32,000 nucleotides of DNA from Calothrix sp. 336/3 (GCF_000734895.2 NZ_CP011382.1:690700-722699), one strand, 5' to 3'. Positions 28,023 to 32,000 are shown, numbered from the stretch's first letter. Notes: a model not told the origin generated them from the letters alone. Translations and numbers: made by a program.

Positions 28023-30572
28023 TCACTTCACTTGAGAAAGCCAAGACTCCCTATCAATACGCTCGGCTATCGGGTGTTTAGTTGTTGCTCCAACTTCAGA
28101 TGTATCCATATGCCATCCTTGCCAAGTCTGCGCAGCCAGTTGAGAAAACTCACCTTTGACTTGGAAACAAGTAGGATTATCTTCTCTACTCCACAAACGA
28201 CAAAGCAAGTCTAATACTTTGTCCGAGGTATGATTACCCATGGGGTTAAGTTTGTCCTTGTTGGATTCAATTAATTTATCTTCTTCCTTAAACAACTTAC
28301 CCAGTCTCTGCTTAATACTGAAGTTACCTAGCTTATTGGAACATCTGCCAATATTGAAAAGTGCATCACAGATGCGGCGATTTAATCCTAAATATATTGC
28401 TCCTTTCAGTGCCTCTAGAAAATGTTCTAAAGCTTTGTTCGGCTCATTTTCAATTAGCAGTAAATATTCTCCATTTAGCAGGGAAATCTCCGAGAGAACC
28501 GCTTGGCAAAAACTTTGGCTGTGACCAAAGGTTAAATCAGTTTTCGCCAGTTGATCAGCGAATTTTAATGCCTGTTGTGGCAACTTATCTTCTCCTAGTC
28601 TCACCCAAACTCTTCCTGCTAAGGCTAACCAGCGAGATGCTCTGCGAGTTAAGCCAATACGTAAAGCGTAATGGGCTGCCCTAATAAAATATTCTGCGGC
28701 TTGCTCTAAGGTATCCCTATCATCACTCAGATAGAACTCAATTCGCCCAACATTCCCATAAATTTCAGACAAGGCTTGATAAATATCCAAACCAGGGTCT
28801 TTATAGCAAGAACCTAGTTTAATAACACGTCTAATTTTCTCATCCCATTCTTTTAATCCTAGCCACTGACTTCTCTTACTAGCTACAAATAAATCGGGAT
28901 TATGCCCACAGGAAAGCTCATATAAATACACTTCTGAGCGAATTAGAGCAAGTATGGGGATAATCTCTTCTTCTATTTCCTTATCCTTATCAATTTCTTG
29001 TTGAATTTCTTTAATTAGTAGTCGGGCATTACTAATATTGCCTTGGGTATTATAAAGTCTGAGTTCCAGGCGTTTTGCAAGAAAATAACAACGGTAGAAG
29101 TTAAGTCGATAGGAAAAATAAATCTTCTCTTGGGGGATTTTTTTTAATTCCTCCCTAGCTGTATCTGCAATTCTTTTAATTTCCCTAGAATTACATTCAT
29201 CACCCAGAAACTGAAATTTTTGAAAAGCTCTTCTGGCTCTAGTTAATTGTGCTCTTAATCCACAAAGAGCTTTAAATGCGGAATTATATACTTCTAAATC
29301 AAGTTCACCACTCCAGCTTTTATCTGCTAGCCATGACTTGGCACCACAAACTATGGCTTGCAAAATCGTAATCATGGAATCTCTATCAACCCAAATTCCT
29401 TGATAATGTCGTTGATGTCCTAGAATAACTGTGGTTTCAACTAGGGAATCAATACTGCTATCTAAGGTTTTTGTGAATAGAGTAATTTTACCTACCTCCT
29501 TGGTTAATCCCATATGGAGACTACAAGCACCAATGGCATTCTCAATCATTGTGTTGTTAGAGGTATACATCCATTCCAGATATTCAGTTGGTTTGTCATT
29601 ATGGCTAAAGCTACAGGTAACTACAGCCATCATTATGGGACTGCGGGAGTCAAAGGACTGCACTTCTGGTTGCGTTGTCAAGTAGATATCAGAAGTATTT
29701 AGTTCCCACTCTGCTTGATTTGCAATCTTGACAAAGAGGTCATAGACTGCTCCATATTCTGCTTGTTTACTAATAGACTGGGATAAAATTTGAAATTCTA
29801 ATTTTTCCACTCTCAGGTGTAGGTTAGTCGGATATTTAGGCATTTGCTCTTTAATTGCAATGCTCAGAAACAGTCCGATCGCCTCTTGCTGAGTGAAGTT
29901 TGTCTTACCTCCTGCTTTCAATCTGCTCCAGGTTCTTTGTAGTTTGTCAATGACTTCGAGTCGGAGCTTTAAACCCAACATGACGCTGAAACTGGAACTT
30001 GTCATCGGGTCGGATTTGCGCAGATTATCAATTAAATATTCGAGAAAATCATCCTCTTGATTCTCTCCAAAAAATTTTTTACTGGCAATGGCTATTTTAT
30101 TGCTGGCGATCGCCAAGAATTCTTGGGTTGTGGGCAGAAAATCTTCAAAACGCAAAAACTCCAGCAAGGCAACGACTTGAGCTACTTGAAAGAATCTTTC
30201 TGGTGTTATCCTAATAATATTATTGTTCTCTGGCAAAAAGCCCGCAGACTCCAGTAATTCATCAGAACCAATCTTTCCTAACAACTTCCGCAGTTCATCA
30301 GGAGTCAGATCTATTTCTCCTCTGGTTTTTTCACCATCGTTTTTAGACTTCCTTTTAGATACCTGACGACTTTGCAATTTGTTCCACAGTTCAATCAAAC
30401 CTTTTCTATCAACTGGCAATCTTTCCTTTTCCTTATTCAGAAAATCAATTACCACTGGTCGGCTAACATTCATCCCCTCCGAGAGTTCCACCTGGGTTGC
30501 TCCCATCTTGTCGAGAAAGAAGCGGAGCATCTCCCTCAGGGCTTCTTGATCTCCCACGTTTTCCCTGCTCAT
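28023..30572 (-). CDS. large (849 aa) orphan protein: N-terminal XRE-type helix-turn-helix, a central unknown domain, and a TPR-like helical C-terminal half
   Basis: HTH segment MGATQVELSEGMNVSRPVVIDFLNKE. The C-terminal half contains TPR-like helix pairs (e.g. EQAAEYFIRAAHYALRIGLTRRASRWLALAGRVWVRLGE and ALEHFLEALKGAIYLGLNRRICDALFNIGRC). There is no P-loop. The gene is visibly more AT-rich than the neighbouring core genes. Confidence 0.7.
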   Translation of the reverse strand: MSRENVGDQEALREMLRFFLDKMGATQVELSEGMNVSRPVVIDFLNKEKERLPVDRKGLIELWNKLQSRQVSKRKSKNDGEKTRGEIDLTPDELRKLLGKIGSDELLESAGFLPENNNIIRITPERFFQVAQVVALLEFLRFEDFLPTTQEFLAIASNKIAIASKKFFGENQEDDFLEYLIDNLRKSDPMTSSSFSVMLGLKLRLEVIDKLQRTWSRLKAGGKTNFTQQEAIGLFLSIAIKEQMPKYPTNLHLRVEKLEFQILSQSISKQAEYGAVYDLFVKIANQAEWELNTSDIYLTTQPEVQSFDSRSPIMMAVVTCSFSHNDKPTEYLEWMYTSNNTMIENAIGACSLHMGLTKEVGKITLFTKTLDSSIDSLVETTVILGHQRHYQGIWVDRDSMITILQAIVCGAKSWLADKSWSGELDLEVYNSAFKALCGLRAQLTRARRAFQKFQFLGDECNSREIKRIADTAREELKKIPQEKIYFSYRLNFYRCYFLAKRLELRLYNTQGNISNARLLIKEIQQEIDKDKEIEEEIIPILALIRSEVYLYELSCGHNPDLFVASKRSQWLGLKEWDEKIRRVIKLGSCYKDPGLDIYQALSEIYGNVGRIEFYLSDDRDTLEQAAEYFIRAAHYALRIGLTRRASRWLALAGRVWVRLGEDKLPQQALKFADQLAKTDLTFGHSQSFCQAVLSEISLLNGEYLLLIENEPNKALEHFLEALKGAIYLGLNRRICDALFNIGRCSNKLGNFSIKQRLGKLFKEEDKLIESNKDKLNPMGNHTSDKVLDLLCRLWSREDNPTCFQVKGEFSQLAAQTWQGWHMDTSEVGATTKHPIAERIDRESWLSQVK

Positions 30573-30804
30573 ACCCTTGGTTTTACGCGATTATGTAAAT
30601 TATATTGACAGTAAAATGATGCTTTTTCTTTTTCTGTCACAAAAAGTACTAAAAAACATATTAGAGTGTTTTTTATTTTGACAGTGTAATTATTGAATAC
30701 AAATTTTCTCCACTTTATCCATTTTTAGTATAGCAAGATACTGTTTTTTGGCAAAACTGTAAATATGCTTAATAGCACATCCCAATTTTAAAGGATAATG
30801 AATT

Positions 30805-31191
30805 ATGCCTCCTCAAAGGGTTGAGGCTTTTCTCAACTACTGCGAACAGAGGATAGCTAGGTTTCAACAAGCTAACAACACTGGACTTCTAGAGATTTTA
30901 TGCAGTCTTGATTATCGAGGTTACGGCAAAGTCGAGTGTCGCTGTGGGGATTTCCAACATTTCCTGATTTCGCCAGAAGACTTAGCTATCTGGAAAACAC
31001 ATCCGTTGTCTCGACAAAGGGAAAACTTAGAAACCATAGAACAGGTTCTGGCAAAGCTTGATAGTGCATTGTTCGAGACTTTTTGTCTGCAACAAGGTTA
31101 TGCAACTATATTAGCGTGGTATCGTGGGCAGGATGGTCTATATGGTTTTCAGTTTTCGCCATCAATAGTCCATGGAATTAAGCCTTGTTGA
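30805..31191 (+). CDS. hypothetical protein (128 aa), divergent from the 849-aa gene
   Basis: ORF with AAGGA 8 nt upstream of the ATG. No family recognised. Confidence 0.5.
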   Translation: MPPQRVEAFLNYCEQRIARFQQANNTGLLEILCSLDYRGYGKVECRCGDFQHFLISPEDLAIWKTHPLSRQRENLETIEQVLAKLDSALFETFCLQQGYATILAWYRGQDGLYGFQFSPSIVHGIKPC

Positions 31192-31428
31192 GAGTTTTAG
31201 AGGTGATGACAGCACAGCTGCTCCACCTAAGTAATTAGCTACTAATCGCGCCTTGTGTGAGAGTGATTTCTAACAACTGCATAAATTTCCGCTCACAGAA
31301 TATCATCACATCGATGGGAATAACCACGACGGATGTTGCTGAAGTTTCGGCTTGGCACATCCATTTTTGCATTTCTGGGGTGGAATAAATTTCTCAGTCA
31401 TGTACGAATAAATATCTACACTACAGTT

Positions 31429-31665
31429 ATGACAAAAAGTAAACCCAGTCATTACAGTCGTCTATTTCAATTGACTGTGAGGTTCTTCAAGTATCTCTTA
31501 CTAGCAATATTTGGGCTAACGATCGCCTATATTCTTTCCATGAGTTTTGGGGTTTTTAGTCTTTTTGCGGCACTATTACCCTTTCTAGGAGATTTATTTG
31601 GCAAGCTAACAGTGATTCTGTTGTGCTTGATCACAGTCACAGTCATTCTAGAATCTCTGCGTTAA
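31429..31665 (+). CDS. small membrane protein (about 78 aa, two TM helices)
   Basis: LLLAIFGLTIAYILSMSFGVFSLFAALLPFLG and LTVILLCLITVTVIL. The track start at 31333 is the alternative. Confidence 0.45.
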   Translation: MTKSKPSHYSRLFQLTVRFFKYLLLAIFGLTIAYILSMSFGVFSLFAALLPFLGDLFGKLTVILLCLITVTVILESLR

Positions 31666-31756: not shown

Positions 31757-32000
31757 ATGATTAATAGTGCATATGTTGTGACAGTACTACCATATTTAGT
31801 TGGACTAACTCTTGGCATTGTTTACCGTAAACCTATTTCATATTTCCTGACTCGTTTGAATAGGGCAAAACTTTCGAGCAGTGGAGTTGAACTAGAAACC
31901 CACAAACAACTTGGTAAACTTAGTAGTCAAGGTCAAGAAATGGCATCAATTCTCAAAGAAATTAGGAATGATATAGAAAGAATTGTCCATCATGAGAAGC
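31757..32000 (+). CDS. partial ORF running off the window end (N-terminal TM helix, then a helical region)
   Basis: My own translation from ATG 31757 gives MINSAYVVTVLPYLVGLTLGIVYRKPISYFLTRLNRAKLSSSGVELETHKQLGKLSSQGQEMASILKEIRNDIERIVHHEK..., with no stop before 32000. Confidence 0.35.
   Translation, partial: MINSAYVVTVLPYLVGLTLGIVYRKPISYFLTRLNRAKLSSSGVELETHKQLGKLSSQGQEMASILKEIRNDIERIVHHEK

Follow-up and report, generated by a model that had tools for sequence, protein, structure and literature searches.

Several described systems resemble parts of the locus reported here. Descriptions of RRNPP signalling systems are limited to Firmicutes and the mobile elements of these bacteria (PMC10075063), PF08502 domains are the leucine/isoleucine feedback sensors of LeuA and CimA and act as autonomous recognition elements (PMC13381585), and promoters activated by NtcA carry GTAN8TAC centred near -41.5 and a TAN3T -10 box (PMC3898017). 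In this study, we analyzed a stretch of 32,000 nucleotides (nt) from Calothrix sp. 336/3 (GCF_000734895.2, NZ_CP011382.1:690700-722699), referred to below as the window. It contains a gene for a protein of 849 amino acids (aa), hereafter the regulator, which is present as a single copy in the genome and is read divergently from a cassette of small genes. The LeuA/CimA regulatory domain is familiar from branched-chain amino-acid synthases, where it is the feedback sensor; in the regulator, a domain of this type appears to lie between an XRE-like helix-turn-helix (HTH) and a tetratricopeptide repeat (TPR)-like superhelix. The family is unnamed and mostly cyanobacterial, and all records examined annotate its members as "hypothetical protein". 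Our limited literature search found no description of the combination of HTH, LeuA-type domain and TPR, no report of PF08502 within a DNA-binding protein, and no mention of any locus tag of the family.

We give an even chance to the proposal that the protein is a ligand-sensing, autoregulated one-component regulator of a swappable small-protein cassette, and that the promoters of this module are also under nitrogen control. The evidence comes from the predicted fold of the regulator, the DNA between it and the cassette, and the comparison of related loci.

The central LeuA-type domain and the architecture of the regulator

A model of the full-length regulator, generated with ColabFold/AlphaFold2 from 42 homologues, had a mean predicted local distance difference test (pLDDT) score of 81.8 and a predicted template modelling score (pTM) of 0.78. 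Four helices at residues 10-68 were followed by a linker that extended to about residue 250, an alpha/beta region at 251-396, and helical repeats from 399 to the end. The linker was Lys-rich and helical and poorly ordered, with pLDDT below 50 at residues 115-172. Scans of the regulator against Pfam, NCBIfam, and PADLOC gave no significant match.

The first-pass annotation of this DNA had left roughly 350 residues behind the HTH without a family. Part of this stretch can now be assigned: by profile and fold comparison, residues ~251-420 are a distant homologue of PF08502, the allosteric, branched-chain-amino-acid-binding regulatory domain of LeuA and CimA. When the domain columns of an alignment of 73 divergent family members were compared by hhalign with the aligned C-terminal 185 residues of 25 cyanobacterial LeuA/CimA proteins, the probability was 94.4% (P 8.5e-8, 153 columns), in contrast to at most 0.7% and P of at least 0.08 for the controls, namely a reversed template, 20 column-shuffled templates, and 40 GAF domains of the same genome. 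Comparison of full-length with full-length profiles placed regulator residues 306-414 onto LeuA residues 421-535 of 549 (79%), a segment that coincides exactly with the regulatory domain, and a second profile-profile run returned 87% with E 4.1e-6 for residues 340-413. In addition, a Foldseek search with the whole model matched Mycobacterium tuberculosis LeuA (3hps and 3hpz; ranks 30 and 33 of the list; probability 0.97 and 0.93; 161 columns), and a Pfam scan of 10 distant members found PF08502 in member P0149 at E 1.2e-4, with 22.5 bits against a gathering cut-off of 24.9. In the model, where the domain had pLDDT values of 85-96, the strands and helices formed two beta-beta-beta-alpha units, the first strand being followed by an inserted long helix, an order that we take to be that of the LeuA regulatory fold. 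An identity as a GAF domain was rejected, as hhalign against the 40 GAF domains gave 0.5%. No HMGL-like or other Pfam domain was found in the regulator, indicating that it is not a LeuA-family enzyme.

The loop GxGPVDA of LeuA aligned with S338-x-x-T341-x-x-E344-N345 of the regulator family, and a second conserved loop aligned with Y390-Q-G392-x-W394-V. The equivalents of the LeuA ligand loop, S338, T341, G392, and W394, were among the best-conserved positions of the family. Because GxGPVDA is replaced by S-x-x-T-x-x-E-N, the ligand is not necessarily leucine or isoleucine. It is plausible that the LeuA-type domain binds a small molecule by means of loops that differ chemically from those of LeuA.

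The four N-terminal helices were modelled with pLDDT of about 80. A family profile matched CylR2 and PbsX-type HTH chains of the PDB weakly (E 0.009-0.04), a PHROG "transcriptional regulator" family matched at E 0.0016, and one distant family member matched HTH_31 at E 0.008. Residues S37 and R38, which lie in the predicted recognition helix, were nearly invariant in the 73 members. The XRE-type HTH that had been proposed from the window alone therefore has the weak profile matches and the four-helix model on its side, although neither Pfam nor NCBIfam recognizes it.

The C-terminal region consisted of uninterrupted all-helical repeats from about residue 399 on, mostly with pLDDT above 90. Foldseek matched it to MalT domain III (1hz4), RapF (4i9c), AimR (5y24), NprR (5dbk), and LGN (5a7d) with probabilities of 0.9-1.0 and target template modelling (TM) scores of 0.4-0.49, yet with E values above 0.05, and none of those in the PDB list was below 1e-3; the match to MalT domain III had a probability of 1.0 and a target TM of 0.45. 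Residues R658 and H833 of this half were invariant in the 73 members. The all-helical superhelix and its best fold matches, which are TPR proteins, agree with the TPR-like sensor half described earlier. Human separase, the top match of the whole-model Foldseek search (E 5e-3, query TM 0.27, root-mean-square deviation ~19 Å), was set aside as a helical-repeat likeness with a different order of domains. A search of the viral structure library BFVD returned a generic repeat protein only.

A motif scan of the protein detected neither Walker A ([AG]xxxxGK[ST]) nor Walker B (hhhhD[DE]), and the central fold in the model was built of beta-hairpins with no Rossmann or P-loop pattern; both results uphold the first-pass statement that a nucleoside triphosphatase (NTPase) motif is missing. 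A G222-K223 pair (in "AGGKT", window 29904-29909) was kept in most of the 73 members, and E230 was invariant among them. Both fall in a predicted helix-loop-helix, and the context is therefore not that of a P-loop.

The nucleotide composition of the gene was ordinary. The GC content was 39.6% against 41.1% for the genome, in the 31st percentile of 2550-bp genome windows, and among open reading frames (ORFs) of at least 400 aa the GC content at third codon positions and the codon-usage distance ranked in the 43rd and 46th percentiles, respectively. Equally AT-rich stretches exist elsewhere in the window. A horizontal origin of the gene, suggested earlier from a visibly higher AT content than that of its surroundings, thus draws no support from these three measures, which all lie within the genome norm.

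The control region and the divergent cassette

The coordinates of the regulator, its domains, the control elements, and the cassette are listed in Table 1.

Table 1. Features of the regulator gene, the intergenic control region, and the divergent cassette (window coordinates)
Feature	Position	Strand	Basis
Regulator ORF including stop codon	28023..30572	-	ORF list and translation; 849 aa, ATG start
XRE-like helix-turn-helix, residues ~10-68 (predicted)	30369..30545	-	Model helices, profile matches, conserved S37/R38
Central alpha/beta domain, residues ~251-420, putative distant PF08502 homologue	29313..29822	-	hhalign, Foldseek, model
TPR-like helical superhelix, residues ~421-849 (predicted)	28026..29312	-	Model and Foldseek
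Operator-like palindrome TGTAAAT-TAT-ATTGACA	30594..30610	.	Starts 22 nt upstream of the regulator start codon
Regulator-side box GTC-N8-TAC	30636..30649	.	Conserved block; ~40 nt beyond the palindrome
Cassette-side GTA-N8-TAC box (GTATAGCAAGATAC), candidate NtcA-type activator site	30728..30741	+	Conserved position
Candidate -10 hexamer TATGCT	30764..30769	+	22 nt downstream of the cassette-side box; read from the sequence
orf128, soluble Cys-containing 128-aa protein, first cassette gene	30805..31191	+	Synteny
Non-coding element in the gap from orf128 to the membrane ORF: invariant ATCGATGGGAATAACCAC, long hairpin at 31329-31363, T-run	31310..31369	+	Alignment
78-aa hydrophobic protein, 2-3 membrane segments, conserved C-terminal ILESLR	31429..31665	+	Synteny, hydropathy
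Start of orf276, N-terminal membrane helix and ~240 aa, optional fourth cassette gene	31757..32000	+	Runs off the window

The intergenic DNA had a GC content of 26% and, apart from four conserved blocks in an alignment of 30 loci, was unconserved. The same layout recurred in the Rivularia clade, in which the regulator is only 56-58% identical. The palindrome next to the regulator has the family form TGTAAAT-N3-ATT(T/G)ACA (ATTKACA in its right half), and GTAAAT-N3-ATT(T/G)AC with up to two mismatches was found beside the regulator start in 41 of 43 loci. A scan of the genome returned six palindrome sites with at most one mismatch against 4.3 expected; since such sites are not enriched, the palindrome is probably specific to the module, with no wider regulon. 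TGTAAAT half-sites were also present upstream of the distant members in L130 and L134; one locus has GTGTAAATTATATTGCT at 42% protein identity, and another a perfect ACATTTACAA-N4-TTGTAAATGT at 25%. Half-sites that follow the gene across clades and are not enriched elsewhere are the pattern expected of a cognate operator. The control region shared by the regulator and the cassette thus contains a conserved, operator-like palindrome.

The sole exact TGTAAAT-N3-ATTTACA outside the module was located at G000:C1:6031159-6031175, in an intergenic region, and ends 10 nt upstream of an ORF of 231 aa. About 0.1 such sites are expected by chance, and this one may be a second target or a coincidence.

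Beyond the palindrome, the regulator-side box coincided with a block, "TTTGT..T.....ATAC", conserved in the 30 aligned loci, and an exact GTA-N8-TAC lay 67-72 nt from the regulator start in 9 of 19 Nostoc-type loci. On the other side, an exact GTA-N8-TAC was found 54-71 nt before the start codon of orf128 in most Nostoc-type loci (16 of 19), and an equivalent box was found upstream of the gene that takes the place of orf128 in Rivularia-type loci, orf118 (19 of 24). In 25 of 43 loci, GTA-N8-TAC was followed by a TAnnnT hexamer at a distance of 20-24 nt (22-23 nt in most). From this NtcA-type geometry, cassette transcription is predicted to start near 30776 (+). For the regulator, a start is predicted near 30601 (-), with the regulator-side box ~41.5 nt upstream of the putative start. 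The palindrome would then cover the -10 region and the start of the regulator promoter, which is the position of an autorepressor operator.

These sites also bear on a different reading of the protein, which we regard as highly improbable: a TPR scaffold or chaperone with a degenerate HTH that does not bind DNA and acts post-translationally on the small membrane proteins, while the motifs are bound by others such as NtcA. Many TPR proteins are scaffolds, the HTH falls below all curated thresholds, and the disorder of linker residues 115-172 would fit this view as well, but it leaves the near-invariance of S37 and R38 over 73 divergent members unaccounted for, as well as a TGTAAAT palindrome that accompanies the gene from clade to clade with no enrichment elsewhere in the genome. 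Both are in line with a regulator that binds DNA.

The regulator lies head-to-head with orf128 and the membrane ORF in the window, confirming the first-pass observation that the gene diverges from two small ORFs, one of them membrane-embedded. According to tblastn against the fetched loci, both ORFs accompany the regulator almost everywhere, whereas the downstream CAP-domain gene and the genes beyond the cassette do not. When all ORFs of 52 loci were clustered, the recurring partners were a hydrophobic protein of ~75-80 aa (45 of 52 loci), a small soluble protein directly opposite the regulator (43 of 52), and two further small ORFs described below (17 and 12 loci); no other flanking gene was common to more than 10 of the 52 loci.

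The first cassette gene, orf128, was syntenic in 20 named loci with 52-77% identity, and its 16 homologue clusters all belonged to taxa carrying the regulator. It had no family match in Pfam, NCBIfam, PADLOC, or PHROG. It is the soluble partner in Nostoc- and Tolypothrix-type loci. In the Rivularia clade, its place is taken by the 118-aa protein of orf118; a kinship between the two was rejected, as hhalign gave 0.2% and they are not detectably related. In a Nostoc-like group (L030, L032-L035, L037, and L038), orf128 was reduced to a fragment of ~42-60 aa next to an intact regulator and an intact membrane ORF of 80 aa. The soluble partner seems dispensable, judging from these fragments.

In Nostocaceae, no partner accompanied the regulator more constantly than the membrane protein, which was annotated as a coding sequence on both plasmids on which the module was found. 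The ORF as called has 110 aa (31333-31665); the true product is probably ~78 aa, because conservation begins at M33. Behind it, orf276 encodes 276 aa in the genome and had 19 homologue clusters, all hypothetical, with no match in Pfam, PHROG, or PADLOC; its position was occupied in 6 of 52 loci. The non-coding element before the membrane ORF showed 79-91% nucleotide identity in 17 loci, above that of the flanking genes, and RNAalifold predicted 18 pairs, four of them with compensatory changes. It had no match in Rfam. The element looks like a terminator or attenuator, which would leave its invariant 5' part unexplained.

Two further small ORFs were observed in related cassettes. One, of ~67 aa, was present in 17 of 52 loci (e.g., L048:4956-5168, L056:4965-5159, and L076:4402-4587, all on the minus strand). 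Its N-terminal segment resembles a signal peptide and ends in an AxA-like site, a motif C-x-I-D-P-x-L-P is conserved near its C-terminus, and it could be a secreted peptide. The other was an extra protein of ~66 aa in 12 Rivularia-clade cassettes (within L073-L096; ~2 kb upstream of the regulator, e.g., L076:2274-2474), with an N-terminal membrane helix and an Asn/Gly-rich tail (NGN repeat).

The ~67-aa ORF invites comparison with RRNPP-like peptide signalling, in which the TPR half would bind a peptide processed from this neighbouring product and serve cell-cell communication. The succession of HTH and TPR, the fold matches to RapF, AimR, and NprR, and the hydrophobic N-terminus with its AxA-like site are all what such a system would be expected to show. 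However, tblastn found no counterpart of the ORF in the window or the genome, and it was undetectable in more than half of the loci. Moreover, the regulator is twice the size of an RRNPP receptor and carries an extra metabolite-type domain, library and profile searches found no sequence-level relation to any RRNPP family, and RRNPP systems are confined to Firmicutes and their mobile elements in the descriptions available (PMC10075063). We consider peptide signalling of this kind very unlikely. Of the RRNPP/MalT-like layout suggested earlier, the HTH-plus-TPR fold likeness stands, but the secreted-peptide-like ORF that would complete it is absent from this genome.

Distribution, descent, and distant relatives

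The regulator is not an orphan, as the first-pass annotation had called it. A word-indexed search retrieved 76 clusters at 90% identity, all with lengths of ~840-890 aa and full-length identities of 56-84%, from Tolypothrix, Desmonostoc, Calothrix, Fischerella, Chlorogloeopsis, Scytonema, Nostoc, Rivularia, and others, and an exhaustive profile search of 1.84 billion representatives retrieved 166 clusters at 50% identity, nearly all of 840-990 aa. Nearly all of the 166 clusters match end to end, and the architecture is therefore fixed throughout the family.

With each species of the same GTDB family represented by a single genome, a regulator match was found in 64 of 389 Nostocaceae species genomes and 21 of 68 genera. 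The gene was near-universal in one genus (23 of 27 genomes; named loci from Rivularia and marine Calothrix), occurred sporadically in one Nostoc-like genus, and gave no match in several genera from which 7-20 genomes were sampled. In the order outside this family, only weak, distant relatives were detected, in 7 of 300 sampled genomes. Plasmid copies were present in Fischerella sp. NIES-4106 (plasmid3, 75% identity) and Nostoc sp. C057 (p057_I, 68%). Four short remnants of the gene (G403:C15:925296-925472, G385:C1:9388643-9388858, G466:C57:9973-10822, and G609:C27:7200-7547) were found, three of them with internal stop codons and all in genomes with no intact copy, pointing to decay and loss. 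The module is accessory, being patchy in distribution, partly plasmid-borne, and accompanied by decayed remnants.

In a maximum-likelihood tree of the regulator, the Rivularia clade was coherent, and elsewhere the rows of named families interleaved. This topology fits vertical descent with loss and some transfer, with the taxonomy of Nostocales too unstable to decide. The identity of leucyl-tRNA synthetase (LeuRS) to that of this genome was 82-88% among the 150 best of 379 matching genomes; because of this, LeuRS cannot rank the relatives, and there is no close relative for an empty-site comparison. With regard to the first-pass proposal as a whole, the normal composition and a centre resembling a domain of housekeeping enzymes go against it, whereas the homologues are not universal and their neighbours are not varied, in keeping with it.

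In the flanks of 51 Nostocaceae loci (119 ORFs, Pfam), transposases, integrases, and defence genes were not in excess, and the families found formed an ordinary and diverse set that included response regulators, DM13, LysR, ABC transporters, Hsp20, and ferrochelatase. Hsp20 genes were located a few kb from the module on both plasmids (L099:12347-12763 and L100:5525-5977) and at three chromosomal loci (3 of the 119 flanking ORFs), which may be due to chance or to a loose link with stress genes.

In seven divergent loci that we looked up, a divergent upstream cassette was the rule, and its content changed. The distant cargo comprised a Gln_amidase with Imm35, a six-gene operon of unknowns, pairs of ORFs of 54-80 aa, and a single unknown protein of 212 aa. 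The first of these, a Gln_amidase papain-fold toxin (PF15644) with Imm35 (PF15567), stood next to a regulator relative of 927 aa on two contigs (L127:4607-5462 and L128:468-1323), with both matches above the Pfam thresholds. Some distant loci lay near GmrSD, AAA_21/DUF3696, a DUF4011 helicase, or Uma2. PADLOC-DB 2.0 gave no match at E below 0.01 for the regulator, the cassette, or the cargo of the distant members; the best scores were two matches of orf128 to the candidate family PDC-M06A at E 0.02.

Because one distant branch carries a toxin and its immunity protein as cargo, a regulated conflict system, be it an abortive-infection, toxin, or defence module, is a possibility. Under this alternative, the regulator would silence toxic small membrane proteins, or elsewhere a deamidase toxin and its immunity partner, and would release them once the TPR or LeuA-type domain senses a signal from phage or stress. 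Small hydrophobic proteins are typical membrane-disrupting effectors. The variation of cargo behind a conserved regulator, from orf128 and the unrelated orf118 to the Gln_amidase-Imm35 pair, the ORF pairs, and the six-gene operon, would be expected of such a system, as would the patchy distribution with decayed remnants, the two plasmid copies, and the GmrSD, AAA_21/DUF3696, DUF4011 helicase, and Uma2 genes close to some distant members. On the other hand, neither the regulator nor any cargo is matched in PADLOC, no relative of the regulator was found among IMG/VR viral contigs or in BFVD, the Nostocaceae flanks are ordinary, and the presence in 23 of 27 genomes of one genus, with a coherent clade in the tree, fits vertical inheritance there. 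The NtcA-type boxes also point to nutrient control over infection sensing. On balance, we hold a conflict system to be unlikely. As for the regulator-plus-effector module envisaged by the first-pass annotation, the conserved unit, the operator-like palindrome, and the toxin-immunity relative argue for it, and the missing PADLOC match and the ordinary flanks argue against it.

A broader version would join both ideas in a cyanobacteria-specific, metabolite-gated conflict or signalling switch, in which a LeuA-type amino-acid sensor joined to an HTH and a TPR clamp would let the nitrogen or amino-acid state, or a phage or neighbour peptide, release interchangeable effectors such as small pore-forming membrane proteins, a deamidase toxin with immunity, or a secreted peptide. 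We think such a switch improbable. If true, it would add a new class to the regulated abortive-infection or kin-signalling modules and would be the first case of the LeuA allosteric domain serving gene regulation in nature.

Proposed mechanism and comparison with known systems

In the reading that we prefer, that of a ligand-sensing, autoregulated one-component regulator, the protein would dimerise through its LeuA-type domain, as LeuA does, and would bind the palindrome over its own -10 region and start site, thereby repressing itself. It would also control the divergent cassette, consisting of orf128, the 78-aa membrane protein and, here, orf276, so that the output would be a set of small membrane proteins, and the module might serve stress adaptation or defence. 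A small metabolite at the LeuA-type domain, a peptide or protein partner in the TPR groove, or both would alter DNA binding; amino acids or related acids are candidate metabolites, and the one bound need not be leucine or isoleucine. Through the GTA-N8-TAC boxes, both promoters would in addition be under the control of NtcA or another CRP-family factor, and we therefore propose that the cassette is induced under nitrogen or carbon imbalance.

Several observations weigh against this reading. The HTH of the window protein is below all curated thresholds in Pfam and NCBIfam. For the central domain, hmmscan of the window protein and of 41 close-homologue domain fragments gave no PF08502 match, the close homologues alone reached only 39% against LeuA/CimA in hhalign, which marks the match as remote, and residues 196-432 folded alone were unusable at pLDDT 46. 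In the control region, the regulator-side box of the window reads GTC-N8-TAC instead of GTA-N8-TAC, and a second palindrome that relatives carry near the cassette promoter is degenerate in the window. Moreover, the protein that binds the GTA-N8-TAC boxes could be the regulator and not NtcA.

If a metabolite is bound, the regulator would be a natural counterpart of the biosensors that have been engineered from the LeuA allosteric domain (PMC13381585), and it would connect gene expression in filamentous cyanobacteria to amino-acid or nitrogen status in a new way. With its operator, NtcA-type boxes, and small swappable cassette, the locus offers a compact and directly testable system.

Compared with known systems, the regulator resembles the RRNPP receptors (Rap, Rgg, NprR, PlcR, PrgX, and AimR) in a TPR-like superhelix behind a putative N-terminal XRE-type HTH, an element absent in Rap, and in adjoining small ORFs. 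It differs in its length (849 aa against ~300-450 or, more widely, ~250-500 aa), its additional LeuA-type domain of 170 residues, its cyanobacterial origin, and the lack of a propeptide gene in this genome. With MalT and other LAL or STAND proteins, it shares the format of a large one-component regulator with a TPR-like helical-repeat sensor superhelix, but it has no P-loop NTPase, and its predicted HTH is N-terminal and XRE-like in contrast to the C-terminal LuxR-type HTH of those proteins. The relationship to the LeuA/CimA regulatory domain is one of profile homology (87-94%) and of two beta-beta-beta-alpha units; the HMGL-like TIM barrel is missing, the domain stays below the Pfam threshold, and the loop motif is changed. 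The logic of joining an HTH to a small amino-acid-binding, oligomerising alpha/beta domain is that of Lrp/AsnC (HTH and RAM) and CodY (GAF and HTH), although the sensor fold is a different one (GAF was rejected) and the regulator is far larger, with a TPR half. Likewise, the sequence geometry before the cassette, with a conserved GTA-N8-TAC and a TAnnnT 22-23 nt on, is that of NtcA class II promoters, except that the regulator-side box is imperfect in this genome. Judged by these likenesses, the regulator appears to be a one-component sensor regulator that works like the RRNPP, MalT-type, and Lrp/CodY sensors and yet is a member of none of these groups.

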